A stretch of 64,000 bases of DNA from Candidatus Dojkabacteria bacterium. GTDB taxonomy: Bacteria > Patescibacteriota > Dojkabacteria > J137. The notes below the pieces were generated by a model. It had not been told where the DNA came from. It was given only the letters and a program-made list of their open reading frames with translations, and did not search any database. Below, piece by piece: positions 4,185-60,487 of this stretch (within the stretch, counting starts at the first letter, position 1; each line of letters begins with the position of its first letter). Both the position numbers and the translations under genes were made by a program. The stretch lies in NCBI GenBank assembly GCA_030834985.1, contig JAUQWV010000001.1:23778-87777 (forward strand), read 5' to 3'.

Positions 4185-4421
4185 TTATGCGTAAGTTGGC
4201 AGAGGGTTTTTTCGTTTATACTCCTCCAGCCTTCTTAATGCATCTTGTGGCGCGCTCGCTAAAGCGGTATTGAGCGCTTGCTCCGCGTCAAATCGCCGAT
4301 AGCCAGCAGCCTCGACTTCAAAACTTGAGCCGTGCCTGCTTTTTTCTACGGTTGTTTTGACAGCTGAATAGTACTCCTTATACGCCTCAATTAACGCTTC
4401 TGCGAGTTGGTCATTAGACAT
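4185..4421 (-). CDS. Hypothetical small protein (78 aa), GC-rich orphan gene
   Basis: ORF with SD (aaggaga) 8 nt upstream of the ATG on the minus strand. Local GC is much higher than its neighbours. Confidence 0.4.
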   Translation of the reverse strand: MSNDQLAEALIEAYKEYYSAVKTTVEKSRHGSSFEVEAAGYRRFDAEQALNTALASAPQDALRRLEEYKRKNPLPTYA

Positions 4422-5572: not shown

Positions 5573-5574
5573 AA

Positions 5575-6062
5575 ATGCGAAGAGGGCAGCTGCAATATGC
5601 GAGCTGCCCTCTGAAACCGGGATTCTCCATTCCCGGATTGAACCTGGGGGAAGACTCCCCACAGGCGGGCCAAATATTTGACCATCGCCAGATTTGCTCG
5701 TCCCGCAGCCGGGGCGCGACCGATGCTGTTCACTCTGAGAGTGTCCAGCGCAGTGTTGTCGCGCCAATCAGGGACGCTGCGCAAATCTTACAGCCGTTGC
5801 CGGCTGTGGCTTAGGTCTCCCCGCTTACGCTCCCTGGTGGGAGCCTGGGCGGGGCTATCTTTCTTCAGAAAACCCATCCTTTTTTCCTTTCGCGAAGGTT
5901 CGCCAATAAAGGTGACCGCTGGTAGTGCCCATCGTTCTACCCTTGAGACGAGATCTCAAGCGGCTGATTACGCCACCCACCTCGGCGGTTTGGCTCGGGC
6001 TTTCCGCAGAGCCGCCTGAAAGAGCTTGAAGTTTTTATTAGAAACTCACTCAGGCGGCTCTG
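5575..6062 (-). ncRNA. rnpB: GC-rich structured non-coding RNA, most consistent with RNase P RNA (rnpB); tmRNA not excluded
   Basis: ~60% GC block in a ~33% GC genome. Only Arg-rich overlapping ORFs on both strands, none with an SD. On the minus strand, in order: hairpin cagagccgcctga..tcaggcggctctg, directly followed by GGAAAGCCCGAGCC (cf. CR-I GGAAAGUCCGGGCUCC), then GCCAAACCGCCGAGGTGG, AAGGGTAGAACGATGG (cf. CR-II AGGGUGAAANGGUG), then GCTCCCACCAGGGAGCGTAAG (cf. ACUCCACCCGGAGCAAGG). A CR-V/P4 3' strand was not found by eye. Confidence 0.45.
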
Positions 6063-6208
6063 TTAGTTGTTTATTTATTAAAAAGCTATATTCATTATAT
6101 ACTTTTATGCCCGGATAAGTCAATACTTTTTGGCAACAAAACAATAAGCCGCTCTCCCCTCAAATCCTTTTACCTGATATAATTAGTGCGTTTTGTTAAT
6201 CGACGAAA

Positions 6209-10139: not shown

Positions 10140-11624
10140 ATGACAGCAAGAACAAGAATAGCACCAAGCCCTACAGGCTTAGGTTTACACATTGGCCATA
10201 TTAGAACAATGTTGTACGATTACGCATTGGCAAAAAATACAAATGGACAGTTTATTGTACGAATTGAAGATACTGATCAAAACAGATATGTTGAAGGAGC
10301 AGTTGAAAACATACTTAAAACAATTAAGGATTACGGATTAAATTACGATGAAGGTCCTATTGTGGAAGGGCCTTACACACCTTATGTGCAATCACAAAGA
10401 TTAGAGATCTATAAAAAATATGCATTAGAATTAATTCAAAAAGGTTATGCATATTATTGTTTTCTAACACCAGAAGAAACAGAAGAATTGCAAAAACAAG
10501 CAAGACTTGAAAATAAAAAATTAAGATCGCCTTATCGAAACACTTCCTTAGAAGAAGCAAATACGCTTATTGAACAAGGTAAAGAACATGTAGTTAGACT
10601 TAAAGTTCCAGAAGATGGAGAGATTATTTTTGAAGATGCTATTTTAGGAAGACTTAAGTTTAACAGTAACGAAGTTGATGATCAGATCTTATTAAAAACA
10701 GATGGTTTCCCAACTTATCATCTAGCCGTAGTAATAGACGATTACCTAATGAAAATTACTCATGTTTTAAGAGGTAACGATTGGCTCTCTTCTACTCCAA
10801 AACATATTCTACTTTATAGATATTTGGGATGGGAGTTGCCTGTTTTTGCACATTTACCAAATCTAAAAGAAAAAAATGAAAATAGAAAGTTATCTAAAAG
10901 GTATGGTGCAGTTTTTGCAAGCCAGTTCTTAGAACAAGGTTATCTGCCAGAAGCGCTGCTCAACTTTTTAATGCTATTAGGCTGGTCCTCTCCTATTGAA
11001 AGAAAACATGGTGAATCAGAAAAAGAAATTTATTCTTTACAAGAATTTGTAGAATTGTTTTCTTTAGATCGTGTCCAAAAAACTGCGCTCGTTTCTTTTG
11101 ACCGCGATAAACTCTTATGGTTCAACAAAGAATATATTAAGGCAAAGTCTGCCGATGATTTAAAAGATATCTTTGTAAATTGGTTTAAAAATCATAATCA
11201 AGACAAAACTTTAGAAGAATTCATTCTGCAAGATAGTCAGCTTGAAGGCAAGATAGCGTTAATAAAAGAAAGGGCCGGGACGTTGGTAGATATATTATCT
11301 CAGTTAAACTTTTTCTATATTAAGCCAGAAGGTATAGATTGGAATATTAAACAACTTGGAGCTGTAAATGAACATATAGATGAAATGAGAAAAGATCTGT
11401 ACGATTTGCACTCCACATTTAATGCTGACACAAAAAGTTGGTCCCATGAGGAGTGGGAAAAAGGAATAAGATCAATAGGTGATAAATATAATGCAAAACA
11501 TGGCGATATCTTTATGGTTTTAAGAGTTGCAATTGTTGGTATGCCATTTTCTCCACCACTCTTTGAAAGCCTGCAGCTAATGAATAAAGAAGATATATTA
11601 AGTAGGCTATATCCAAATTTTTAA
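10140..11624 (+). CDS. gltX: Glutamyl-tRNA synthetase
   Basis: Class I HIGH (HIGH at N-terminus) and KMSKS-like (KLSKR) motifs. Typical GluRS length. Confidence 0.9.
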   Translation: MTARTRIAPSPTGLGLHIGHIRTMLYDYALAKNTNGQFIVRIEDTDQNRYVEGAVENILKTIKDYGLNYDEGPIVEGPYTPYVQSQRLEIYKKYALELIQKGYAYYCFLTPEETEELQKQARLENKKLRSPYRNTSLEEANTLIEQGKEHVVRLKVPEDGEIIFEDAILGRLKFNSNEVDDQILLKTDGFPTYHLAVVIDDYLMKITHVLRGNDWLSSTPKHILLYRYLGWELPVFAHLPNLKEKNENRKLSKRYGAVFASQFLEQGYLPEALLNFLMLLGWSSPIERKHGESEKEIYSLQEFVELFSLDRVQKTALVSFDRDKLLWFNKEYIKAKSADDLKDIFVNWFKNHNQDKTLEEFILQDSQLEGKIALIKERAGTLVDILSQLNFFYIKPEGIDWNIKQLGAVNEHIDEMRKDLYDLHSTFNADTKSWSHEEWEKGIRSIGDKYNAKHGDIFMVLRVAIVGMPFSPPLFESLQLMNKEDILSRLYPNF

Positions 11625-14048: not shown

Positions 14049-16559
14049 ATGGATCCATTGGTGTTTCTACTAATAATCGTCTTTTTGATAGCGTTCATGG
14101 TTGTCGCCAATATCGTGTTGCAAAGATATTACAACCTAAAAGTAAGAGTTAACGAAACGATTGTAGATAAAGTTGTATTAAAGATTGCAGTTCCTGTACG
14201 AAACGATAAAAAAGCTCTGGCGGCTGAACAAATGTTTCAATCTTTCCACGGAATTCTAAAAGGCGATAAAGCAAGTAAAGATCATTACTCTTTTGAAATT
14301 TTTGCTGCAAATCACGGTATATATTTTGTTGTTGTATGCTCTAATCGATATAGAACCTTTTTAGAAAATCAGATTTATGCACAATATCCAGAAGCTCAAA
14401 TCACTGTTGTACCAGATTATGCACAGCATCATCCAAGCGAGCTGACAACTGTCAGCGAGCTTAGTCTAGAAAGAGAGTTTTTTTTACCTATCAAAACTTT
14501 TACAAGTTTTGAAGTTGACCCTTTAGCATCAATTACAAGTGCTGTATCTAATTTAACCCCCGGTTTTGAGGTTTGGATTCAGCTTTTAGCCCGGCCAATA
14601 AGTAATGACTGGCAAGTTAAAGGTAAAGAATATGTAGATAAGATTAGAAACGAAAAAGATGCTGAAGGCAATAAAAAAGAGCCTGATTCTTCCGTTGTTG
14701 AAACTTTTGGGGATATCTCACGTAAGTCAGATAAGGTTGGTTTTCAGTTTAGAATTAGAATTATAGGAAAAGGACCAGATGAAAATACAGTTAAGCGACT
14801 TGTAGAAGATACTGAAGCCGCATTCAAACAATTCCAAACTACAAAATTAAATAGTATTGTTAAGCCAAAGTCCAAAAAGAAAGGATTTTTTGATAAATTG
14901 GGCGACAAAATAGAATTATTTTTTAGCGGAAAAAGGCTTGGTGATAAATTAACTGCGCTTCAAAAATATCAGTTTAGGTACCTAGACGAACGCGAAAAAA
15001 ATATTGCAAATATCGAAGAGCTTGCCTCGTTATATCATTTGCCAAACGAAACTGTAAAAACTCCGAATATTGCATGGGCTAAATCCAGAAAACTTGAATT
15101 CCCTTTAAATCTACCGGTTCTAAAGCAAGATCCCGCTGCAAATCAGGGAATCCGTGCTATGGCTCTTACAGATTATAGAAATATTCATCTACCTTTTGGC
15201 ATAAAAGCTGAAGATAGAAGACGTCATATGTATTTACTTGGTAAAACTGGTACAGGTAAATCTACTTTTTTAAAGAATATGATTGTAGGTGATATTCTAG
15301 ATGGAAACGGCTTAGCAGTTTTAGATCCGCACGGAGATCTAGTTGAAGAAATCTTAGATTTGATTCCAGAACACAGAATTAAAGATGTAATTTATTTAGA
15401 CCCTTCGGATGTTGAATTCCCGATAGGCCTTAATATGTTAGATATCAAGGAAGGTGAGACACTAGACTTATTAGCAGACGGTATTGTTAATGTATTTAAA
15501 AAGTTCTTTGGCGAAATGTCGTGGGGGCCAAGGCTTCAGCACTTACTATATAACTCTGTAGCTACATTGCTTCACTGTCAAAATGTTTCTTTACTTGCAG
15601 TTTTAAGAATACTAAATGATAAAAACTATAGGACGTTTCTTCTTAAGCAAGTTAAAGATCCATTCTTAATTAAATTCTGGGAGGAAGAATATGCTCAGTT
15701 AAGCATAAACCCAAGGCTATTAGCCGAAGCTGTGGCTCCAATTCAGAATAAAGTTGGTAGATTTTTAGGTTCTACAATGGTCAGAAACATGATTGGCCAA
15801 ATAAAATCTACCATTGATTTATCTGAAGTTATGAACAGCGGGAAAATCTTGTTAGTAAATCTATCTCAAGGAAAGATTGGTGAAGAAAGCTCATCATTAC
15901 TTGGAGCTATGATTGTCACAAGGCTCTATTCTAATGCAATGCAGCGTGCCAGAATGGCAAAGGAAGATAGACGTGATTTCTATTTATATGTGGATGAATT
16001 TCAAAACTTTGCAACGGAATCATTTATTAAAATTTTATCTGAAGCAAGAAAATACGGATTAAACCTAATAGTAACACACCAATATATAGATCAGATTGAT
16101 GAAAAAATTCAGGATGCTATCTTTGGAAATATCGGGACATTAATGAATTATGTTGTAAGTCAAAAAGACGGTGCAAGGCTTGAAAAGGAATATACTCCAT
16201 ATTTAGGTATGGAAGATCTTGTAAACTTAGATAAATATCGAATTGCAATGAAGATGACTGTTGATATGGCACAAACTCCTCCATTTACAGCTATTGCTAT
16301 GAAGCCTAGCTATCAATTTTACGGGTTAAAAGATGAAGTTAAAGAGTTCTGCCGAAGAACATATGCAAAGCCTAGGGATCAAGTTGAATTAAAGCTTAAT
16401 AAATGGGCAAGCCAAGTTTACGATAAAAATGGCAACCTAGTGCAAAAAACTGATGAGGTTGCTCCTACATCTAATAAAAAATTCAGCGGTAAAAAAACAT
16501 TTAAAGATAATAAAAACGCCTCTAACGCTTCTGCTTCACAAAGTATTCCGCAAGCTTAA
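14049..16559 (+). CDS. Membrane-anchored type IV coupling protein-like ATPase (VirD4/TraD/TraG family) with a ~380-aa N-terminal region of unknown function
   Basis: N-terminal TM. Walker A LLGKTGTGKST. Walker B in FYLYVDEFQNF, followed by the RKYG...THQ...Q block typical of T4CPs. Confidence 0.6.
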   Translation: MDPLVFLLIIVFLIAFMVVANIVLQRYYNLKVRVNETIVDKVVLKIAVPVRNDKKALAAEQMFQSFHGILKGDKASKDHYSFEIFAANHGIYFVVVCSNRYRTFLENQIYAQYPEAQITVVPDYAQHHPSELTTVSELSLEREFFLPIKTFTSFEVDPLASITSAVSNLTPGFEVWIQLLARPISNDWQVKGKEYVDKIRNEKDAEGNKKEPDSSVVETFGDISRKSDKVGFQFRIRIIGKGPDENTVKRLVEDTEAAFKQFQTTKLNSIVKPKSKKKGFFDKLGDKIELFFSGKRLGDKLTALQKYQFRYLDEREKNIANIEELASLYHLPNETVKTPNIAWAKSRKLEFPLNLPVLKQDPAANQGIRAMALTDYRNIHLPFGIKAEDRRRHMYLLGKTGTGKSTFLKNMIVGDILDGNGLAVLDPHGDLVEEILDLIPEHRIKDVIYLDPSDVEFPIGLNMLDIKEGETLDLLADGIVNVFKKFFGEMSWGPRLQHLLYNSVATLLHCQNVSLLAVLRILNDKNYRTFLLKQVKDPFLIKFWEEEYAQLSINPRLLAEAVAPIQNKVGRFLGSTMVRNMIGQIKSTIDLSEVMNSGKILLVNLSQGKIGEESSSLLGAMIVTRLYSNAMQRARMAKEDRRDFYLYVDEFQNFATESFIKILSEARKYGLNLIVTHQYIDQIDEKIQDAIFGNIGTLMNYVVSQKDGARLEKEYTPYLGMEDLVNLDKYRIAMKMTVDMAQTPPFTAIAMKPSYQFYGLKDEVKEFCRRTYAKPRDQVELKLNKWASQVYDKNGNLVQKTDEVAPTSNKKFSGKKTFKDNKNASNASASQSIPQA

Positions 16560-16633
16560 AGCTAGCATATACGTTATAATTAAACGCTCGTAAAAATATC
16601 CATGCTATAGGCTGGAAATAAGGAGATCATGTA

Positions 16634-16852
16634 ATGCCAGACAAACCGCAAGAAACAGTTGGCGGCACTTTTTTGGTGCCACCTACCCCACCTGCACACA
16701 TCCCGTCTGAGTTCGAGGTCCTCCCCCCATTCCGTCTGAACAGAGAGAAAGGGGAGGCAAAGAAGCCGTCAGAACCAAGCGGATACTGCGGGTACGGATA
16801 CGACGACATTACAGCCGAACAGCGCGAAGCCCACGAGGATTATGGGGGCTGA
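16634..16852 (+). CDS. Hypothetical Pro-rich acidic small protein (72 aa)
   Basis: SD aaggagatc 7 nt upstream. Terminator hairpin 16869-16892. Confidence 0.5.
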   Translation: MPDKPQETVGGTFLVPPTPPAHIPSEFEVLPPFRLNREKGEAKKPSEPSGYCGYGYDDITAEQREAHEDYGG

Positions 16853-16868
16853 GCGCTAAAACACCTTA

Positions 16869-16900
16869 AGGGCGGGCTAAATCGCCCGCCCTCAAAAACA
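16869..16900 (+). terminator. Rho-independent terminator-like hairpin (agggcgggc/gcccgccct)
   Basis: 9-bp GC stem and 6-nt loop, followed by caaaaacatttcttc. Confidence 0.5.
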
Positions 16901-16912
16901 TTTCTTCTAATA

Positions 16913-16940
16913 TTCACTAATTTACTATCGCTGATATAAT
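16913..16940 (+). promoter_or_regulatory. Sigma70-like promoter (TTCACT-16-TATAAT) for the 16987 gene
   Basis: Hexamers at 16913-16918 and 16935-16940. 5'-UTR hairpin ggttc..gaacc follows. Confidence 0.4.
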
Positions 16941-16986
16941 ACTGTATCCTGGTTCAATTTAGAACCGGAATAAAAAGGGGATGTAA

Positions 16987-17193
16987 ATGTCTCTAAGACG
17001 GGGTGACATAGAAAGTCAGAAGGCTCGTGAACTTGCAGAGGGATATCGCGAAGAGATCTCCACTGACGTACCGAATATAATCATCTTAAGGAGGCGTAAG
17101 CTTCTGAATGATGACGGTAATGGGAGTGAGATGAACATAAGCACTCAGCTTGACGACTTTGTATGTGAATGTACCGACTGCTTTGACGACTAG
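16987..17193 (+). CDS. Hypothetical acidic small protein (68 aa; C-terminal CECTDC)
   Basis: SD aaaagggga. Followed by terminator 17212-17250. Confidence 0.5.
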   Translation: MSLRRGDIESQKARELAEGYREEISTDVPNIIILRRRKLLNDDGNGSEMNISTQLDDFVCECTDCFDD

Positions 17194-17211
17194 CAAACCC
17201 TAACCACATAA

Positions 17212-17250
17212 GTCTGAGAATCTAAAGATTCTCAGACATACTTATTTTGT
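17212..17250 (+). terminator. Rho-independent terminator (gtctgagaatc/gattctcagac + T-tract)
   Basis: Perfect inverted repeat followed by atacttattttgt. Confidence 0.6.
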
Positions 17251-17262
17251 CACCCAAAATCG

Positions 17263-17290
17263 TTGACTTTGTATATATTTGTAATATAAT
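17263..17290 (+). promoter_or_regulatory. Sigma70-like promoter TTGACT-16-TATAAT
   Basis: Consensus -35 at 17263-17268 and consensus -10 at 17285-17290, upstream of the 17343 gene. Confidence 0.55.
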
Positions 17291-17342
17291 AGTATTTAAC
17301 CCTAATTGAATAGGGAATCGTTCTATAGCAAGGAGTTGAAAA

Positions 17343-17579
17343 ATGTTGGGTCATCAAGAATCTAGGTCAAAGTTTCGCCACCCAGCGCGTCTCCCCAACT
17401 ATCAGAAGCCGCAAATACTTAGAGAAGGAGTAGCGGCTTATGAGGAGGAGAAGGAAGACGCTACGGCCCACGCGGGTAGCTGGGAGTACTGGCCTAACGA
17501 CCCGAGTTTGATTCAGCAGTTTGATGACGAGGCTGTGGCGGATGAACCGCCCGGCCAAAATGGCGTTGACTGGATTTAA
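17343..17579 (+). CDS. Hypothetical acidic small protein (78 aa)
   Basis: SD caaggagtt. Terminator 17604-17640. Confidence 0.5.
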   Translation: MLGHQESRSKFRHPARLPNYQKPQILREGVAAYEEEKEDATAHAGSWEYWPNDPSLIQQFDDEAVADEPPGQNGVDWI

Positions 17580-17603
17580 TCCAGCGCGCTATATACTCCT
17601 ACT

Positions 17604-17640
17604 GTCCTGAGCAGCATGCTGCTCAGGACAATCCTTTATC
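17604..17640 (+). terminator. Rho-independent terminator (gtcctgagcagc/gctgctcaggac)
   Basis: 12-bp stem followed by aatcctttat. Confidence 0.55.
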
Positions 17641-17676
17641 CTATAGTAATTTTTTCTAAATTTTCTTCTAAAATCC

Positions 17677-17704
17677 TTGCATCATAATAGTTTTATGATA
17701 TTAT
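17677..17704 (+). promoter_or_regulatory. Sigma70-like promoter TTGCAT-16-TATTAT with TG extended -10
   Basis: Located upstream of the 11-codon ORF. Confidence 0.45.
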
Positions 17705-17737
17705 CGAAACATCCTTAAAAGAAAGGAGGTGCGCAGC

Positions 17738-17773
17738 ATGAAGAACAAGAAGTTTAATAATTGCTGCAAGTAG
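17738..17773 (+). CDS. 11-codon mini-ORF (MKNKKFNNCCK) with a strong SD
   Basis: aaaggaggt is 8 nt upstream of the ATG. Followed by a ~70-nt untranslated stretch, then hairpin 17843-17875 whose loop contains aaggagg. Confidence 0.35.
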   Translation: MKNKKFNNCCK

Positions 17774-17842
17774 ACGACCCTGCCGGCCGGATACCGATCG
17801 AAGTGACGTAGTTAGTCCTTCCCACCCCTTATTCTTTTGGAA

Positions 17843-17900
17843 GCTAGACCCCCTCCAAGGAGGCTGGGGTCTAGCCTCAGCTTATTCCCCTTTTACTAAA
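17843..17900 (+). terminator. Terminator-like hairpin (gctagacccc...ggggtctagc) + T-rich tail
   Basis: 10-bp stem, SD-like loop, followed by ctcagcttattcccctttt. Confidence 0.5.
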
Positions 17901-17958
17901 TTAAAGAAACTATTGTATACTTTTTTACCATCGTTTTAGAGCCAGGAGGGCCTTTTAG

Positions 17959-18168
17959 ATGGCGGATGAAAGTTGTCCAAATTGTAAACGGCCGTTAACA
18001 AACGGCAGATATATGGTACGGTGCTCGCGTTGCGGAAAGGCTGCCTGTTATAAGGTAGACTTTCTAGGAGGCGCTAAGCCTAGTGAGTGCTGTGCTCATA
18101 ATTTATGGCAGAACGAAGCCTGCCTAAAAGAAGGTGAACGGCATAAATTCAAGCCGTCCAGCGAGTAG
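17959..18168 (+). CDS. Small Cys-rich zinc-ribbon-like protein (69 aa)
   Basis: CPNC...CSRC pairs plus additional Cys. SD ccaggaggg. Terminator 18173-18205. Confidence 0.5.
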   Translation: MADESCPNCKRPLTNGRYMVRCSRCGKAACYKVDFLGGAKPSECCAHNLWQNEACLKEGERHKFKPSSE

Positions 18169-18172
18169 TAAA

Positions 18173-18205
18173 GCGCCCTGCTTTTGCAGGGCGCAAAACC
18201 TTTCA
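18173..18205 (+). terminator. Rho-independent terminator (gcgccctgc/gcagggcgc)
   Basis: 9-bp stem and tttt loop, followed by aaaaccttt. Confidence 0.55.
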
Positions 18206-18260
18206 TTTAGTATTTCTAAGCATAGAATTAAAGTGATATAATTCATAGCTCATATCGTAT

Positions 18261-18331
18261 TCGGGGTTCGTCTAGTGGTAGGACAACAGTTTCTGGAACT
18301 GTTTACTGGGGTTCGAATCCCTGACCCCGAG
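18261..18331 (+). tRNA. tRNA-Gln (anticodon CUG)
   Basis: Cloverleaf built by hand: 7-bp acceptor with U1-A72 and G73 discriminator (bacterial Gln identity). D-stem GTCT/GGAC. Anticodon stem ACAGT/ACTGT with loop TTCTGGA. T-loop TTCGAAT. No encoded CCA. Confidence 0.8.
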
Positions 18332-18334
18332 TTT

Positions 18335-19162
18335 TTATGCAATCCCGTAAGTAACTGCAATTACTATTAAAATCACCAAAACATATTCTGTTAATACACC
18401 TCTACTAAAGGTTTTCATTACCAGATGGTGAATTATTGCGGAAGTTAGATAGAAAATAAAGAATAATCCTAAGCTTATCTGTAAACTATTCACTACTCTA
18501 TCTATATGATACAAAAAGAATATAATCCCAATAAATACACTTGCAATTGATCCGTAAACTAAAGAATATAAATGAACTTTATCGTAGCGCCATAGCATTA
18601 AAACAATAAGACTAAAAGTTACAGCAATCATTGAAGCAGCGTATAAGACTAAATTATTCGTAAAATTATTTGCTGCATTTGAAAATACATCTGCCAGACA
18701 AAAGAAAATTAAAAATTTTATTAAATCATATACATAATGAGTTTTATCTTGAGCTCTTAATTTATGATCAAAAAAAGCACGTATATTTACAAAAAGAACA
18801 AAGAATGTAATAAAGACGGCTATTAATAAAAATACTAAAGATGAACTTCTTAGGTTATAAAATCCAAATCCTACAATAGAAAAATATAAGCCAATAGGTA
18901 GTATCAATTTATGAAAGAGATGAGAAAGCTCGTTAATTTCATCATCAAAATCTAGGTTAATTTCTACTTTAGAGCTTTTAGTTCTCCAGTGAGAAAATAT
19001 TTCAACAACGTAAATAAAAAGTACTAACAAGGAGAATAATATAAATCTATTTATACTTTGATTCTGGTGTAATTCCTGTAGGGCTATATATATGCCTAAA
19101 GTAACCGATAGTGAGTAAAAGAATGTTCTGAAATACTTTTTTGTCAATTTAGACAAGAACAT
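18335..19162 (-). CDS. Hypothetical polytopic membrane protein
   Basis: 275 aa with multiple hydrophobic helices. No recognisable motif. Confidence 0.5.
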   Translation of the reverse strand: MFLSKLTKKYFRTFFYSLSVTLGIYIALQELHQNQSINRFILFSLLVLFIYVVEIFSHWRTKSSKVEINLDFDDEINELSHLFHKLILPIGLYFSIVGFGFYNLRSSSLVFLLIAVFITFFVLFVNIRAFFDHKLRAQDKTHYVYDLIKFLIFFCLADVFSNAANNFTNNLVLYAASMIAVTFSLIVLMLWRYDKVHLYSLVYGSIASVFIGIIFFLYHIDRVVNSLQISLGLFFIFYLTSAIIHHLVMKTFSRGVLTEYVLVILIVIAVTYGIA

Positions 19163-19204
19163 TAAAGTTGGACTATCAAAAACCCAGTAAAATAATATAT
19201 ACTA

Positions 19205-20347
19205 ATGATAAGATACTCTGGCTTTGAATGCTATATGAAAGGTAAAAAAAGAAGGCGGATACCTAAAACAAGCTTTATAGATAATCCAAAATATGGATTT
19301 ATTAAAAGGCTAATGCTTTTTGGTTTAGCTATTTCGGTATTAGGGTTTAACACCTTAATTAAGATTGATGTTAAAGCCAGTAATTCAACGGATTCTATTA
19401 CCATTGAAAACCTGCTTAGGGCTCATAACGAATATAGAGCCGAAATGGGAATGGGACAATTAAGATTAAATACGCTGCTTAACATTTCGGCTCAAAAGAA
19501 AGGCGAAGTTATGCTCAGCTCAAATTGTTGGTCGCACTACTGCCCCCCTAATAAGTCCCCATGGAAATTCTTTGATGAAGCGAAGTATGATTATGTGTTT
19601 GCGGGAGAAAACCTTGCAGAAGGCTACTACAATATCGGTGATGTAATGCAGGCTTGGATTAATAGCAAAACCCACCGCGATAACATAGTTAAACCTGAAT
19701 TTGTTGAAGTGGGTTTTGCTATTCTATACGGCAATTATCTAAATAACTCAAATAATATGCTGGTTGTAGTTCATTTTGGGTCCCGTCCAGATGGCAGTGT
19801 ATTATCCGATTTTAATCCTGCTATAACTATAACGTCTCCTCAGAATAATGCTACAGTAGCAGCGCCTGAAGTTGATATAACAGGTTTAGTAAATGGATTT
19901 GATCAGGTTCAAGTGTTTAATAATAATACATTAAGCGGGCAAGCTCAGATTAGCGGAGGAATCTTTACCTATAGACTAGATAAACTTAACGAAGGACAAA
20001 ACCGAATCTATGCAGATGGCATAAACTCATCGGGCTTTTCGCTTACTTCTAATACAGTAAATGTTACATATACTCCGAATGTAGAAATGGTAAGCGAAAC
20101 AACAGAGTTTTTAAATACAGAAGAGGGCTTTACGATATCATTACAGAATCGAAATTTAATTAATCTTGGATTTATAATATTTTTAGCACTGATTTTTATA
20201 ATAGATATAATTTTAGTTTCTAGAACATCAGCAATATCTACGAAGAAATCTTTCTCTCACTACCATTTGGGACTTATTATATTAGTAGCATTAATTATTG
20301 CGATAGGCGGATTTGCAGGACAAATTCAAAATGGTATATCCGTATAA
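19205..20347 (+). CDS. CAP (SCP/PR-1-like) domain-containing secreted/anchored protein
   Basis: CAP motifs (HNEYR..., GENLA, HY..V.W) followed by Ig-like repeats and C-terminal TM segments. Confidence 0.65.
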   Translation: MIRYSGFECYMKGKKRRRIPKTSFIDNPKYGFIKRLMLFGLAISVLGFNTLIKIDVKASNSTDSITIENLLRAHNEYRAEMGMGQLRLNTLLNISAQKKGEVMLSSNCWSHYCPPNKSPWKFFDEAKYDYVFAGENLAEGYYNIGDVMQAWINSKTHRDNIVKPEFVEVGFAILYGNYLNNSNNMLVVVHFGSRPDGSVLSDFNPAITITSPQNNATVAAPEVDITGLVNGFDQVQVFNNNTLSGQAQISGGIFTYRLDKLNEGQNRIYADGINSSGFSLTSNTVNVTYTPNVEMVSETTEFLNTEEGFTISLQNRNLINLGFIIFLALIFIIDIILVSRTSAISTKKSFSHYHLGLIILVALIIAIGGFAGQIQNGISV

Positions 20348-23529: not shown

Positions 23530-24567
23530 ATGAAGACTTTTTATGTTACAGATTTAACTAACGGACTTAGTTTATCTGGTGAAGCTTTTGCAATTGCAGA
23601 AGTTATGCGTATGGCCGATAAATACGAAAGACCTTATCTAAAGCTTGTTCTAGCAGATAAAACAGGTAAAGTTGATGCCAAAATCTGGAATGATGCTTTA
23701 GCTAAATCAGATCAAAAAATTTTTAAAGAAGGATCAGTAATCCTTATTGACGGTTCAGTTGAAGACTACAGAGGCAAAATCCAAGTTACTGTTACCTCTG
23801 CTAAAAGAGCAGATGAATCAAAATTAGATGATTTTATTGAAAAGAGCCAGTTTGATGCTACTGAGATGATGTCAGAATTAATGTCATATGTAGAAAAAAT
23901 TGAGCATAAAGCCTTAAGGTCAATTGTGCAGGAGATGTTTAAAGACGAAGCATTCAAGACAAGCTATAAATTCTGGCCTGCTGCAAAGTCAGTACATCAT
24001 GATTTTAGATCAGGTTTGCTGCAACATGTTTTAGAGATGCTAAATATCGCTTATTCGATGAAAAAATTCTATCCAATGGCTAATTATGATATCTTAACTG
24101 CCGGAATTATTCTGCATGATATGGGTAAGTTTGAGGAATTCTCAATTAATGGTATTAGTACAGAGTATTCTAAAAAAGGTATTCTAGTTGGACATATACC
24201 GCTAGGTGCGTTGACTTTTGATAAATATGCAAAAGGTAAATTATCGGAAGATTTATATTATCATATGCTGCATATGATATTAGCTCATCATGGTGAACAG
24301 CAATACGGCAGCCCAATTGTTCCAGCAACAATAGAAGCTGTAATGTTAAGTTATATTGATAGACTTTCTGATAAAGCAAGGTGTGCTGTTCAAGCTGTAG
24401 AAGATATTTCACCTGGTGAAGAATTTGGCAAATATAATCCTTGGATGGAAAATGCTAGATTCTGGAAAGGTGGTAATTATGATGATATCTCAGAAGAATT
24501 AGAAGAAACTCTGGATAAACAAAATGAAGAAGGTGATCAATTAATTTTTAGTTCTGAAAATGAATAG
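23530..24567 (+). CDS. yhaM: 3'-5' exoribonuclease YhaM-like (OB-fold + HD domain)
   Basis: N-terminal OB fold. HD motifs (H..H.LE, ILHDMGK). Confidence 0.75.
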   Translation: MKTFYVTDLTNGLSLSGEAFAIAEVMRMADKYERPYLKLVLADKTGKVDAKIWNDALAKSDQKIFKEGSVILIDGSVEDYRGKIQVTVTSAKRADESKLDDFIEKSQFDATEMMSELMSYVEKIEHKALRSIVQEMFKDEAFKTSYKFWPAAKSVHHDFRSGLLQHVLEMLNIAYSMKKFYPMANYDILTAGIILHDMGKFEEFSINGISTEYSKKGILVGHIPLGALTFDKYAKGKLSEDLYYHMLHMILAHHGEQQYGSPIVPATIEAVMLSYIDRLSDKARCAVQAVEDISPGEEFGKYNPWMENARFWKGGNYDDISEELEETLDKQNEEGDQLIFSSENE

Positions 24568-31906: not shown

Positions 31907-32188
31907 ATGGCGCCAAAACCTGAGTCAAAGTCTAACGAAGACAAAAGTAGAATTGAAGTCTTTGACGGACCAAAGGACAATCACAGTACTCATTCTGTGA
32001 TTCATACCGCTGCCGATGGTTGGGCAACTCACGATTACGAACGAATCGGTTACGATTCGGGAGGAAACCCAATTGAGGTTGTCGATACAGCTGACTATCA
32101 AGGCAACGTGATCGCCGGCAGCGAACAATACAACTCTGGCTGGGATGATACAAGCTTTAATGAGGCTGCAACTAGCATTGAGCCGTAG
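31907..32188 (+). CDS. Hypothetical small acidic protein (93 aa), GC-rich orphan gene
   Basis: SD ggaggct. Compositional island. Hairpin 32200-32226 shared with the convergent gene. Confidence 0.45.
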   Translation: MAPKPESKSNEDKSRIEVFDGPKDNHSTHSVIHTAADGWATHDYERIGYDSGGNPIEVVDTADYQGNVIAGSEQYNSGWDDTSFNEAATSIEP

Positions 32189-42016: not shown

Positions 42017-42315
42017 TACTGATTGAGTGGGATCACCCATTAATGAGTATTAAAAATACTCGCTCTTTAACAACTGTTTAAACAGTTGTGAAAAATCTTA
42101 AACATTAACTGTATGGCCTAAAAGCTTGCAGGTTTAAGGTATTTCTCGCAACTATTGCTTAAATATTTATATAAGCACTCAATGCGGGCAAATTGTTAAT
42201 TATAAAAATAGTTAGCAGCTTGTCCGTCATTGAGTGCTTCCCTCGCGAGGGCATTCAAAACGGCGTATCGAAAGTTTCGCAAGTTTATTCAAGCCCTGAG
42301 AGGGCGGAGGTCAAA

Positions 42316-43740
42316 ATGCAGAAACGCAAGATGTTCTTGATCTTGGCAATAGCCTTGATCGTGGCTCTGGCGCTGCCCCTTGGGGTCAGCGCGCAGGGGA
42401 ATGAAATCGTGGCATACACCTATGCCGGGCAGACTTACACATTCGTCAGCGGTCACCCAGTTTTTCAGCCAGGTGATACAACGACAACCGGTAAGCTGCT
42501 GAGTTCCTCATACCCATTCAGCGTGCAATCATACGCTAACCGTACGGCAATGGAGAACGGAAACGTTCTCGGTCGTGCAGATGCTGAATATGTAGCTACA
42601 CTGCTCGGTGATGAGTACACGCTAAGTGTGCAAGGCACCACAGCAGCTATGTGGTTGGAGGTCATCGTAGGAAGTATCGAATCAGATGGCTTCTGGTACG
42701 ATGGCACTCTGACCTCACTGCATAACGGGCACTTAGTCGTCCCAGCCGGTGACACGCAGGTCACGCCGCAGGTAATGTCTTCAAATGCTGTCTTCGTGGT
42801 GGTCAACTATCTCGATGCAGCGGCAGTGGAGGCATCCACCCCGGCGGGTAGCCTTCCGGCAAATTGTACAACCCTTGTGGGTCAGCAATGCACTGTCGAA
42901 GTGCGCGGTACGGATGCGTCTATGATGCTGGAAATACTCCCTGCTTCAACGGCTAGTGGCAGCGTCACCGCAACGGTAATCCCAGCAGTGGTAGCTACTA
43001 CAACGCCGAATCCTTTGCTTGGAGAGGTAACACCTATCCCAGCACAGAGTGCTACTGGACTGACCCCGTCTGCTGTGGTCTTCCCTTCTGCTTCGAACAC
43101 GTGGGTGTGGGGTCCCATTCAAGGACAAAATCCGATGATCCGGGATTGGCAGATAACCTTGTCACAGTTGGGGGTAACTCCGGCTTTGTGGCAAACGCCA
43201 CCCAACGTGGATAATCCGTTGGTTGACAATAGTCTGTTCCCGACCACTGCTCAGTCACCTGCGCCATGGGGCATCGAATGGCCCGGTACCGACCTGACGT
43301 TGTTTTGTCAGCAAGATACGCGGTGCGACGAAGTAATTTCGGCGCAACACATACGGTACTATACTGGCAACCTTGAACCAAACGGTATGGGGTCTGTCAA
43401 GCCGTGCCATCAGCAGGGTGGGATCGGATGCATGTTGATCCAGGTCAACTCGAACGGTGAGACTGATTCGGTTTTCACTGATCAGGGTTTCATTCGGGGT
43501 TATACGTTCCAAGGGCGTTACTGGGATGGCAATCATCTGGGTAATGGTCTATGGGGGTTAATCTCGTTTGGGACTGCAAACATGACCAATCAGTTGACCA
43601 ACATCAACCAGCCGGGTCTGACCAATGCCGGTGGCAACTGCTCTACGGCGGCGGGCTGCATTGGAACATATATTCAATTGCAGTTCCTGTCGGGAGGTTT
43701 CGAAGAGGGCTATGGCGAGTTTTTGTATATCAAGCCATAG
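42316..43740 (+). CDS. Secreted hypothetical protein (signal peptide; Thr/Val/Ala-rich), high-GC gene
   Basis: SD ggaggt 7 nt upstream of the ATG at 42316; the longer ORF from 42193 is unlikely. Signal peptide MQKRKMFLILAIALIVALALPLGVSA. Confidence 0.6.
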   Translation: MQKRKMFLILAIALIVALALPLGVSAQGNEIVAYTYAGQTYTFVSGHPVFQPGDTTTTGKLLSSSYPFSVQSYANRTAMENGNVLGRADAEYVATLLGDEYTLSVQGTTAAMWLEVIVGSIESDGFWYDGTLTSLHNGHLVVPAGDTQVTPQVMSSNAVFVVVNYLDAAAVEASTPAGSLPANCTTLVGQQCTVEVRGTDASMMLEILPASTASGSVTATVIPAVVATTTPNPLLGEVTPIPAQSATGLTPSAVVFPSASNTWVWGPIQGQNPMIRDWQITLSQLGVTPALWQTPPNVDNPLVDNSLFPTTAQSPAPWGIEWPGTDLTLFCQQDTRCDEVISAQHIRYYTGNLEPNGMGSVKPCHQQGGIGCMLIQVNSNGETDSVFTDQGFIRGYTFQGRYWDGNHLGNGLWGLISFGTANMTNQLTNINQPGLTNAGGNCSTAAGCIGTYIQLQFLSGGFEEGYGEFLYIKP

Positions 43741-43827
43741 TTAAGCAATAGGCGAGAGAAGTTTCCGGACGACCTTGTGTCGTCCGGACTCGCTTTAAGT
43801 AGATTTTAATTATCAAGTCTATTTAAA

Positions 43828-44130
43828 ATGAGTTTATTTAATAAATTTTTAGATATGGCAAATATCAAAGTAAATCTAAGTGATACAGCATTAAAAATGA
43901 TTGCTGTATTGGCAGTTTGTATAACAATTTTAGTATCATCTGCTCTGTTTGTTTTTAGTAGAAACGAAGACAGACGATCTGAGATTATTATAGATTGTTT
44001 TAACGTTGCTACTTATAGTGCAACTAATGAAGATAGTAAATCACAAGTAAAAGAGCCAATCCTTCGATTCTTTAAGAGCTGTATGGAGTTTAATGGTTAT
44101 GGAAGCGATTATTCTTTTTTAACTGAATAA
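43828..44130 (+). CDS. Hypothetical small membrane protein (100 aa)
   Basis: AT-rich ORF inside the island with one TM helix. Weak. Confidence 0.3.
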   Translation: MSLFNKFLDMANIKVNLSDTALKMIAVLAVCITILVSSALFVFSRNEDRRSEIIIDCFNVATYSATNEDSKSQVKEPILRFFKSCMEFNGYGSDYSFLTE

Positions 44131-44419
44131 GGTTTGATTTTGAACAAATTAAGCGCCTCGAAAGAGGCGCTTTTTTGATGCTTTTTCATCCTAAAATATG
44201 GTAAAAATCGCTAAAAATCTTGCCTGTTAAGACTTTGTGTCATCCGTAAGCTTGACGATTTGATATATCTGATATATACTGTATATGTAAGATTTCTTTA
44301 TAGAATCTACGTTCTTTAATAATACAGCAGATAACCTAGATCACGAATTTTAGGACATTTATACAATATTATTGTCTTGGAATTCGTGATTTAGGTAAGA
44401 ACTTATCTAGGAGAATAAA

Positions 44420-45397
44420 ATGCGCAAGTCACGTAAGTGGCTGTTGATCCTCCCTGTTCTCGTTTTGGCTATTGTTGTGATCGCAGTTCTGCTTCCTAAA
44501 GCTCCTGTTCTGGAAACAGTTCGGTGGGCTAGTCTGAACGACTGGGCCCCTGATGGCGCTATCAGTCGTGTAGGAGATCGCTGGTATTTTTCCAGCGGTA
44601 CCTACGGTAGAGTTTACGATCCAGACTTTGGCAGCGGGTGGAACCAAGACGTTATTGGTCCATCCAATGTACCTGAGGCGTTTGACCAAAACTACGCGGC
44701 ACCGGGTTCTGTTCTTCAGATAAATGGAAAGTGGTTTATGTTCTACCATGGTGAGAGCCATGAATGCGCAGGACATTTCCCCTTCCATGCCGGCATTGGG
44801 CTGGCAACCTCTGAAGATGGGTATTTCTGGACGCGTCAAGGTCAGATTCTTTCTACTTGGGAAGAACGTCCGACGTGTCAGGAAAACCGCGCAAGCGGTG
44901 TGGGGTATCCTAGTGCAGTCCAGCACGACGGATATATTTATCTTTACTTTGTATCTTGGACATCGGCGGAAGCCGATGCCACTCATGTGGCAAGATGCGA
45001 AGCCGAGCATATTCTCGAATCTGATTGCTGGAAGAAATATTTCCAAGGCGATTGGATGGAACCTGGCTTGGGCGGTCACAGCACTCCGGTGCTGAGTCGT
45101 TCAAGTGAAGCAGAGCTGTATTTAGCAGCTCCACAAGTTCAAATCTCTGAAGGTACTTTCTTAGGAGTGTTCGAGACCAATCTTGGGTTTGTGACCGCCA
45201 CGTCACAAGACGGTATTGTATGGTCACAACCTAAAACAATCTTTGAGTTCCCAAAACCTCATATCGAGGCGACAGGACAAGATTGGTACAGCTATCCTAC
45301 CCTGATCCGTGAAGACGGTCAGTGGTGGCTGTATATGGCTCGGCAGGACAGCAGCCTTGTGCATCACATGCACAGAATTGCTGTAACACTCCCATAA
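44420..45397 (+). CDS. Secreted hypothetical protein, possible beta-propeller glycoside-hydrolase-like fold; high-GC gene
   Basis: SD aggaga. Signal/anchor. W/Y/G-rich repeats. No firm family assignment. Confidence 0.5.
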   Translation: MRKSRKWLLILPVLVLAIVVIAVLLPKAPVLETVRWASLNDWAPDGAISRVGDRWYFSSGTYGRVYDPDFGSGWNQDVIGPSNVPEAFDQNYAAPGSVLQINGKWFMFYHGESHECAGHFPFHAGIGLATSEDGYFWTRQGQILSTWEERPTCQENRASGVGYPSAVQHDGYIYLYFVSWTSAEADATHVARCEAEHILESDCWKKYFQGDWMEPGLGGHSTPVLSRSSEAELYLAAPQVQISEGTFLGVFETNLGFVTATSQDGIVWSQPKTIFEFPKPHIEATGQDWYSYPTLIREDGQWWLYMARQDSSLVHHMHRIAVTLP

Positions 45398-60181: not shown

Positions 60182-60487
60182 ATGTTTCCACTCATTGCTA
60201 TAAAAGGAAGGTGGGAAGATGGTGCGACTGGCAATGCGAAAAGGGCTATTGCCATAGAAAGCAATAGCATGATGCTGCCGGTTGAAACTCTCTCGCCGAT
60301 AGCGCTTTACTTTGTAATGAAAGGCGAGGTTGAAGGGTTTAAACCTTCTCAGCAGCATAAAGTAGCTGCGGCACAAAGGTTTTTGGCGCACTATCCAGAA
60401 CCGATACATTTAGGGAACGCGCTTTGGGAAGCTGAGGCGCGTAGTTTAGCTCAAGGAATTCTCGAAAACACCTTGAGCGACACCTAA
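60182..60487 (+). CDS. Hypothetical protein (101 aa), moderately GC-rich orphan gene
   Basis: SD agggaga. Perfect palindromic terminator 60506-60537. Confidence 0.45.
   Translation: MFPLIAIKGRWEDGATGNAKRAIAIESNSMMLPVETLSPIALYFVMKGEVEGFKPSQQHKVAAAQRFLAHYPEPIHLGNALWEAEARSLAQGILENTLSDT

Follow-up and report, generated by a model that had tools for sequence, protein, structure and literature searches.

Background

Phage morons are autonomous promoter-gene-terminator units of deviant composition that are found inserted between other genes (the Hendrix/Juhala concept). Together with tRNA-associated islands and integron-like cassette arrays they are among the described systems that come closest to the locus analyzed here, a GC-rich island of five small expression units (positions 16560-18335) in a stretch of 64,000 nucleotides (the window) from an uncultured Candidatus Dojkabacteria bacterium with an AT-rich chromosome. 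The Dojkabacteria belong to the Candidate Phyla Radiation (CPR, or Patescibacteria), obligate epibionts whose host-interaction molecules are almost unknown. The original prediction regarded the island as a compositionally foreign cassette, possibly a remnant of a phage or of an integrative and conjugative element (ICE). On balance, we consider it rather to be a lineage-specific accessory island of approximately genus-level age, which evolves very fast, consists of five stand-alone expression units and has had its GC content maintained. Four of the units would give rise to small proteins, three of them acidic (p72, p68 and p78) and one a basic zinc ribbon (p69), and the fourth in order would give rise to an RNA.

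Like phage morons, the units of the island are self-contained, with their own promoter and 3' hairpin, deviate in composition and specify small proteins. Unlike morons, they lie outside any prophage, without phage genes or viral homologs, they occupy one locus across sister species and their deviant composition is maintained and not decaying. As in the tRNA-associated islands and the integron-like arrays, small orphan genes are clustered beside a tRNA gene and their content is variable (some units occur in one close relative and are missing from another, and one payload is swapped in the relative L012). They differ from these by the lack of an integrase, of att/attC repeats or of a common recombination site at this locus, by having one promoter per gene and by a tRNA gene whose orientation varies among the relatives.

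Composition and conservation of the island

The five plus-strand open reading frames (ORFs) that had been proposed are all present, with 72, 68, 78, 11 and 69 codons, and they are bordered, as proposed, by the gene of a type IV coupling protein (T4CP)-like ATPase and by a tRNA-Gln gene. We treat the T4CP gene as the context of the island and not as an established part of it. The GC content per 300-nt window is 0.41-0.55 within the island and 0.24-0.37 in the flanks. Codon usage deviates too: at third codon positions the four longer ORFs have a GC content (GC3) of 0.45-0.58, whereas the 52 other ORFs of the window have a median of 0.24 (and a range of 0.17-0.34 for window ORFs other than the GC-rich genes). 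The compositional anomaly is thus evident from both measures, although the proposed level of 50-55% GC was too high, as the whole island has 45% and only p72 and p78 exceed 50%.

In comparisons between the window and four sister species the T4CP gene is saturated at synonymous sites (proportion of synonymous differences, pS, 0.71-0.77), and its GC3 is 0.22-0.27. Over such a distance, we infer, neutral amelioration should have brought the small genes near a GC3 of ~0.25. Nevertheless, the GC3 of the p78 family is 0.49-0.67 in all five lineages, and that of the p69 family is 0.39-0.46. Considering that the GC3 of p78 persists while the synonymous sites of the T4CP gene are saturated, the GC richness of the island is shown, as far as these genomes reach, to be maintained and not to be the residue of a recent import.

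The nearest relatives of the T4CP protein, as recovered in a search of GTDB genomes, are from Candidatus Dojkabacteria and other Patescibacteria. Small GC-rich genes are located directly 3' of the T4CP gene in L012, L176, L177 and L180, in which the T4CP protein is 84-88% identical, and the order T4CP, island, tRNA-Gln, DUF5656, CAP has been kept in L176, L177 and the sister lineage L092, which is 95% identical over the island (the contigs of L012 and L180 end inside the island, so that the T4CP-island part is visible up to there). In L092, L176, L177 and L180 this locus contains members of the p72, p78 or p69 families, and L012 has the same promoter frames and the RNA of the fourth unit, with no confirmed protein homolog. 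In L176 (7454-7526) and L177 (9219-9289) the tRNA-Gln(CTG) gene lies on the opposite strand relative to the small genes and has thus been inverted. At a T4CP identity of 68-72% the synteny of the island is gone. The linkage has been lost in two of the four lineages at that distance, L181 and L183, the latter having no such genes after the T4CP gene, and the other two, L013 and L182, have different GC-rich genes in this position. A metagenome scan with T4CP added, among the matches listed, relatives at no more than 48% identity, too distant to inform on close synteny. Within the lineage of the window, p72 occurs as an exactly identical protein in 84 blocks of public assemblies and T4CP in 46, with the same gene context wherever it was shown. 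The strains differ by ~1%, in a patchy and recombination-like manner, and the strains L001-L011 have a single SNP in 16634-18400, so that polymorphism among strains is not informative here.

These data bear directly on the view that the island is a recently acquired foreign cassette, i.e. a moron-like prophage or ICE remnant beside a tRNA gene that would owe its GC content to a GC-rich donor. This view can point to the GC3 (0.45-0.58 vs 0.24), to the moron-like provision of each unit with a promoter and a hairpin, to the position of the island, which abuts tRNA-Gln and a VirD4-like gene, and to the larger orphan genes of the window at 42-45 kb, which are GC-rich and look imported as well. We nevertheless consider it unlikely. 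The island has homologous families in four sister species at saturated synonymous sites, with three protein families at the same locus, and its promoters and untranslated regions (UTRs) are AT-rich, conserved and native-looking. No integrase, recombinase, phage structural or conjugation modules were identified among the flanking genes, no copy of the 3' end of tRNA-Gln that could represent an att-type repeat was present in 15500-19500, and the small proteins had no significant match in PHROGs or PADLOC. Relatives of p72, p68, p78 and p69 were also absent from IMG/VR (plasmid collections were not searched). Furthermore, a similar GC content is found in other small genes, as there are GC-rich mini-genes elsewhere in the window, an outcome that the original prediction itself had named as speaking against a foreign origin. 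Neither the recent import nor the phage or ICE remnant of the original prediction could therefore be upheld.

The alternative that we prefer, an old island with a maintained composition, includes a high rate of change. The nonsynonymous divergence (dN) is ~0.8 for the p78 family and 0.11-0.12 for T4CP, and overall p72 and p78 evolve ~7-fold faster than T4CP. Between the window and L092 the synonymous divergence (dS) is 0.05 for T4CP, 0.25 for p72 and 1.23 for p78. The difference between the first and the last of these values indicates that a divergent allele has taken the place of the first two thirds of p78. In the 20-kb comparison between the window and L092, no other block is as diverged as the island. 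Taken together, the island appears to be vertically retained yet rapidly diversifying.

The comparison between window positions 6600-27500 and L092 has the character of a mosaic, in which most 250-nt windows differ by 0-2% and sharp patches of 8-21% divergence occur at 11000-11500, 16500-18000 and 23750-24250. This pattern suggests frequent homologous recombination with divergent alleles. The C-terminal tail of T4CP is hypervariable (the relatives have 836-890 aa), with a Gly/Asn/Gln-rich extension in L012 (5496-5757), and in the strains L001 and L004 a cluster of SNPs (at 16467-16566, within 16467-16618) extends from the 3' end of the T4CP gene into the spacer before p72.

Architecture of the expression units

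The claim that the units are autonomous gains in weight from the relatives, as the promoter, the 5' stem-loop, the Shine-Dalgarno sequence (SD) and the 3' hairpin are all conserved across species. In a typical unit (Table 1) a sigma70-type promoter and a strong SD, in some cases with a short 5' stem-loop between them, precede a GC-rich body, which is followed by a 3' hairpin that is also rich in GC. The strong SD proposed for each ORF was recovered in 5/5 cases, as an AGGAG-type sequence located 6-9 nt before the ATG. The frame found upstream of p78 (TTGACT-N17-TATAAT, a CCCG/CGGG stem, GGAG, ATG) is shared by L176, L177, L180 and L012, with a mean column identity of 72%, and in the window the stem has the variant CCCTA/TAGGG. 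In L012 (6109-6342) a promoter and 5' stem-loop of the p78 type precede an unrelated ORF of 48 aa that is strongly basic (pI 11.7), an apparent payload swap inside a conserved expression frame.

The promoters TTGACT-16-TATAAT (17263-17290) and TTCACT-16-TATAAT (16913-16940) are the two best matches between 14 and 21 kb. The total number of sites in that region is not remarkable: 19 promoter-like sites were found where 24.5 were expected from shuffled sequence, and 6 terminator-like sites against 4.5. The credibility of the promoters and terminators is therefore based on their conservation in the relatives and not on raw counts, which show no excess over shuffled sequence. The original prediction of a hairpin terminator for every unit and of a promoter for most of them holds for the GC-rich hairpins and for the promoters, with the corrections that p72 has only a -10 box and that the hairpins of most units have no U-tract immediately 3' of the stem. 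Given this single -10 box and the fact that there is no hairpin between the T4CP gene and p72, the latter may be co-transcribed with the T4CP gene.

The ORF bodies of the island also fold more stably than dinucleotide shuffles, as their minimum free energy (MFE) has z-scores of -1.5 to -4.3 (mean -2.7), whereas 30 background coding windows gave -0.38 +/- 1.04 (Welch t about -5.5).

Table 1. Features of the island and of its borders, in window coordinates.
Feature	Position	Strand	Remarks
VirD4/TraD-like coupling ATPase (T4CP)	14049..16559	+	836 aa; Pfam TrwB_AAD_bind, DUF87, TraG-D_C; precomputed domains DUF8128 and TrwB_AAD_bind
-10 box of p72 unit	16575-16580	+	-10 only, no -35
p72	16634-16852	+	72 aa, acidic, Pro-rich, pI 4.7; ORF and SD
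p72-unit 3' hairpin	16864-16897		GC-rich
p68-unit promoter	16913-16940	+	TTCACT-16-TATAAT with TG; kept in L092
p68	16987-17193	+	68 aa, acidic; C-terminal Cys-rich acidic tail (DDFVCECTDCFDD)
p68-unit 3' hairpin	17209-17240		GC-rich
p78-unit promoter	17263-17290	+	TTGACT-16-TATAAT
p78-unit 5'-UTR stem-loop	17300-17315	+	CCCTA/TAGGG
p78	17343-17579	+	78 aa, acidic; motifs N-terminal KF..RRTGF..QR, C-terminal P.G.NG.DWI
p78-unit 3' hairpin	17603-17630		perfect 14-bp stem
Unit 4	17638-17895	+	~185-nt structured RNA (predicted)
Unit 4 upstream box	17638-17655	+	conserved; ATCCTATARTAATTTT
Unit 4 promoter	17677-17704	+	TTGCAT-16-TGaTATTAT
Unit 4 SD	17723-17729	+	AAAGGAGG
Unit 4 mini-ORF	17738-17773	+	11 aa, MKNKKFNNCCK, Asn/Lys-rich, pI 9.7
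Unit 4 C-rich structured segment	17774-17839	+	
Unit 4 hairpin	17840-17878		CUCCAAGGAGG at tip
p69-unit promoter-like site	17892-17921	+	TTTACT-18-TATACT; TATAAT boxes at the same place in L176, L177
p69	17959-18168	+	69 aa, basic (pI 8.7), Cys-rich zinc ribbon, 8 Cys
p69-unit 3' hairpin	18173-18194		GCGCCCTGC-TTTT-GCAGGGCGC; read from sequence
tRNA-Gln(CTG)	18260-18332	+	downstream island boundary; own TGaTATAAT box 18234-18242

The neighbouring genes encode GluRS, a LysM-M23 peptidase, a ferric-reductase-like protein, T4CP, a DUF5656 protein and a CAP-domain protein. For the tRNA-Gln(CUG) gene we considered a role in serving rare CAG codons of the island, comparable to bldA, and rejected it as CAG accounts for 33% of the Gln codons in the background.

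The small proteins

Indels within the ORFs relative to L092 are all in frame: p72 differs by 15 nt, p78 by 3 nt and the mini-ORF of the fourth unit by a net 6 nt. Intergenic indels measure 1-2 nt. The ratio of nonsynonymous to synonymous change (pN/pS) relative to L092 is 0.15 for p72, where 10/15 differences fall at third positions, and 0.23 for p78. On account of the in-frame indels and these ratios, p72 and p78, at least, are by all appearances real genes. The p72 family is characterized by the motifs HIP.E and, at the C-terminus, EQ.EAHEDYGG, and has a homolog of 65 aa in L180 (z 14, tblastn E 1e-4). Members of the p78 family were found in L176, L177 and L180 (z 6-10), at a protein identity of ~19-33%. 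The AlphaFold2 (AF2) model of p78, derived from a two-sequence alignment, is of low confidence (predicted local distance difference test, pLDDT, 59) and consists of a single helix at residues 22-40 with coil for the remainder.

The protein p69 has homologs in L177 (63 aa, z 14.4, E 7e-6) and, marginally, in L176, and differs from that of L092 by a single synonymous change only. Six cysteines are invariant in the family (C6, C9, C22, C25, C44 and C55), and the two CxxC knuckles CPNC (residues 6-9) and CSRC (22-25) are invariant among the homologs, at a conserved spacing, in line with the C4 zinc ribbon that had been proposed. Pfam zinc-ribbon models match p69 weakly and below threshold, and the AF2 model (pLDDT 65) has no match to a fold in the PDB with E < 0.9. 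The zinc ribbon of p69 is thus to be understood as a fold class rather than as family membership.

It is likely that p68 is coding too, with less security than for p72 and p78. It was encountered in the lineage of the window and in L092 only, between which there are six substitutions, 0 of them synonymous and all of them conservative (D/E, I/V, N/D, T/A, L/F, D/E). An exhaustive HMMER search returned p68 itself and one spurious match, to an 830-aa tandem-repeat protein whose E-value was inflated by 8 repeats, and which we discarded.

The proteins lack signal peptides, as had been noted before. They had also been described as mostly acidic, which is correct for p72, p68 and p78 (pI 4.4-4.7) and incorrect for p69 (pI 8.7) and the 11-aa peptide (pI 9.7), which are basic. 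Mutual comparison of the small proteins revealed no similarity, so they are not paralogs. None of them had a match above threshold in Pfam, PHROGs, PADLOC or NCBIfam (best PHROG E 0.011), and in a word-indexed search of 5.8 billion proteins p78 and p69 matched only their own lineage.

Two other explanations for the ORFs have to be weighed against these data. As GC-rich islands in AT-rich genomes are often non-coding RNAs, the units could be structured RNAs in which the ORFs are incidental. In favor of this, whole units fold at z -4.6 to -6.9, each has its own promoter and hairpin, and the same genome contains a clearly non-coding structured stretch of 500 nt (5573-6075). In view of the in-frame indels, the third-position bias, the pN/pS of 0.15-0.23, the persistence of peptide motifs and of the Cys pattern across species at saturated dS and the strong SD before every ORF, we regard an RNA-only island as very improbable, and the reading holds for unit 4 alone. 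The second explanation, according to which the ORFs are fragments of one larger, degraded gene, could account for their small sizes and for the 11-codon ORF followed by untranslated sequence. This split pseudogene is effectively refuted, as the small proteins are mutually dissimilar, the families recur at similar length with their own promoter and SD in several species and no Pfam or NCBIfam match connects them to a larger family.

The fourth unit

The fourth unit was described originally as the ORF MKNKKFNNCCK followed by an untranslated stretch and a hairpin, and these elements are all present, with CUCCAAGGAGG at the hairpin tip. Among the non-coding parts of the island its frame is the best conserved. 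It was found in the window, L092, L177, L180 and L012, is absent from L176, and comprises the box, a TTGnnT -35 element, an extended -10 element (TGnTAT/AATAT), the SD, an ATG and an Asn/Lys-rich ORF of 9-20 codons. After the ORF come ~100 nt that are rich in C and in GC, and then a strong hairpin. The peptides in the five lineages are MKNKKFNNCCK, MKKNNNKKFNCCK, MKNQNHKNWNNAPKNQNP, MKKCNRNNK and MRNFSNNNSNNARMIVTNNN. Between the window and L092 the codons of the core NKKFN(N)CCK have undergone synonymous changes that leave the peptide core intact, next to the in-frame length difference given above. The codon choice is peculiar, with AAG for Lys in 15/15 and AAC for Asn in 19/26 cases, against a background usage of 25% each.

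The RNAs of the unit fold at MFE z-scores of -2.5 to -4.4, and in 5/5 sequences the core of the SD is predicted to be paired. A specific helix between the SD and a downstream anti-SD was considered and rejected, as shuffled downstream sequence pairs equally well. A MAFFT alignment of the five RNAs was too poor for a covariance model, and Rfam yielded only sub-threshold chance matches (E <= 10). The unit is single-copy within the window. A search of IMG/VR with its box gave 26 viral matches, all of them by chance and without the downstream features.

Among the described systems, the closest to this unit are the dual-function and C-rich small RNAs (sRNAs) of the Firmicutes, such as RNAIII/delta-hemolysin, SR1/SR1P and RsaE/RoxS, the last of which have UCCC motifs. 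Like these, the unit is predicted to form a stand-alone transcript, of ~185 nt, with a short ORF and a terminal hairpin, and it has C-tracts (CCCACCCC and CCCCCUCC) that could pair with SD sequences. It differs from these sRNAs in having no Rfam match, in its hydrophilic, Asn/Lys-rich peptide and in that its C-tracts pair with its own SD no better than expected by chance. A resemblance to leader-peptide attenuators can be noted as well, given the short and biased ORF (conserved in five lineages), the alternative-looking hairpins and the position 5' of p69, which follows the unit wherever the contig continues. Unlike in such attenuators, there is no U-tract at the hairpin, three species have a promoter-like site that belongs to p69 itself, and L176 carries a p69 homolog without the unit. 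We treat the fourth unit as a predicted stand-alone small RNA with a translated mini-ORF. Concretely, it could be a regulator that acts through C-rich anti-SD sequence, or it could serve as the leader of p69.

Possible roles of the island

According to the explanation that we favor, the high GC content would be upheld by selection on the mRNA (for a stable, structured molecule), or by allele exchange or GC-biased conversion at a recombination-prone locus. The fourth unit would act as a dual-function or regulatory small RNA. For the proteins we tentatively propose a part in an interaction that co-evolves rapidly, either as short-linear-motif binding modules or as decoys. This interaction could be that of epibiont and host or that of bacterium and phage, and the coupling ATPase might be involved in it. 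A broader version of this idea is more speculative still, and we would put it forward with reserve: AT-rich Dojkabacteria might maintain, by selection, GC-rich and structured 'expression capsules' in which a conserved frame of promoter, 5' stem-loop and 3' hairpin surrounds a payload that diversifies fast or, as in L012, is swapped, with the payloads being epibiotic interaction proteins and possible clients of the T4CP. The synonymous GC content would then be held by mRNA selection, be it for stability or for a further function of the RNA, and not by ancestry.

Several observations weigh against the explanation of a maintained island, or against parts of it. The p72-family member in L180 has a GC3 of only 0.30-0.31, and GC3 could be sustained by an unseen reservoir of GC-rich DNA, through repeated transfer, instead of by selection. 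The negative folding z-scores could result from patchy composition alone, and the large GC-rich genes of the window also reach -1.9. All four proteins are orphans, so that their composition, evolutionary rate and context are the grounds for the role proposed. For p68, which has no synonymous change and a homolog in L092 only, the coding case consists of the SD, the ORF and the six conservative replacements. Finally, the energy of the duplex between the SD of unit 4 and its downstream sequence is no better than with a shuffled partner sequence.

Considering the adjacent gene, a more specific possibility is that the proteins are substrates, adaptors or inhibitors of the VirD4-like ATPase, recruited via their C-terminal tails and exported to the host by machinery resembling a type IV secretion system (T4SS). 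The island adjoins the T4CP gene in the window and in L092, L012, L176, L177 and L180, two tiny autonomous genes follow the T4CP gene in L182 despite a different synteny, and GC-rich orphan genes abut it in L013 and L181. The proteins have no signal peptide, evolve fast and have acidic tails with conserved terminal motifs, ending in DWI (p78), DYGG (p72) and CFDD. The tail of T4CP itself is hypervariable. To our knowledge, no translocation signal has been defined for the systems of Patescibacteria. On the other hand, L183 and more distant relatives lack the linkage, and the scan of the neighbours (~10-20 kb) identified neither virB4 nor any other gene of a T4SS. Nor do T4CP genes have a GC anomaly downstream in general, as the mean excess at 109 CPR loci was 0.055 downstream vs 0.049 upstream. 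Patescibacteria have ~2 VirD4-like genes per genome, mostly located far from virB4, and in Ca. S. epibionticum a VirD4-like homologue was dispensable for epibiotic growth (PMC12102498), which likewise does not favor a role as T4CP clients. In all, we judge such a role to be improbable, if somewhat less so than the recent import of the island, and the functional link between island and T4CP to be suggestive at best. The two tiny genes of L182 (7524-8161; T4CP ~70% identical) are each flanked by a GC-rich hairpin and comprise a basic 53-aa ORF on the minus strand and a Lys-rich, basic 44-aa ORF on the plus strand, the latter preceded by a -10 box and a 5' hairpin of its own.

The acidic proteins p72, p68 and p78 can also be compared with DNA mimics such as Ocr, ArdA and some Acr proteins, which like them are small, strongly acidic (pI 4.4-4.7 for the island proteins), fast-evolving and without detectable homologs. 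Unlike these mimics, the island proteins have no family match and reside in a chromosomal, non-mobile context, and the AF2 model of p78 (pLDDT 59) is mostly coil, without a folded DNA-shaped surface. Pfam and NCBIfam contained no match to the three, and neither did PADLOC, whose models are of defence and not of anti-defence proteins. In addition, p72 was examined as a modifier of the Pup/UBact type, given that it is ~70 aa long, acidic and Pro-rich with a GG end. The candidate was rejected, as its C-terminus is YGG and not GG[QE] and there is no Pfam match at E <= 0.1. A gene resembling PafA or Dop was not identified among the window genes scanned.

For the Patescibacteria, the island amounts to a compact set of candidates for host interaction, four small protein genes (three of them from families that also occur in sister species) plus one small RNA, that are confined to one lineage, evolve fast and look, from prediction, strongly expressed. 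The deviant GC content is here no marker of recent horizontal transfer, since synonymous GC is kept at twice the genomic level across saturated divergence. This challenges the routine inference that, in very AT-rich genomes, compositionally foreign means recently acquired, and points to mRNA selection or biased conversion at accessory mini-genes.

Other GC-rich elements in the window

The structured stretch at 5573-6075 has 500 nt, a GC content of 57% and no credible SD-led ORF, and folds at MFE z -7.1 on the plus and -8.4 on the minus strand. It is bracketed by hairpins, and a near-consensus minus-strand promoter (TTGACT-18-TATAAT, 6123-6094) points inward. Rfam gave no match at E <= 1, and in L007 and L011 the stretch is 95% identical with 26 gap openings. 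These features make it a candidate for a large structured RNA.

A second compositional island at 42193-45397 contains two larger GC-rich orphan genes with a GC3 of 0.57 and 0.46, which encode a protein of 475-515 aa with a hydrophobic stretch in the N-terminal region and a protein of 325 aa with only a weak match to DUF4185. An AT-rich ORF of 100 aa lies between the two genes. Finally, there are three more GC-rich mini-genes, at 4185-4421 (minus strand), 31907-32188 and 60182-60487 (both plus strand), with 78, 93 and 101 aa, respectively, and a GC3 of 0.43-0.45. None matches a known family. All three are provided with an SD and a 3' hairpin and, by eye, with a promoter-like -10 region. At the first of these loci some strains (L007) carry a different gene call, of 74 aa.

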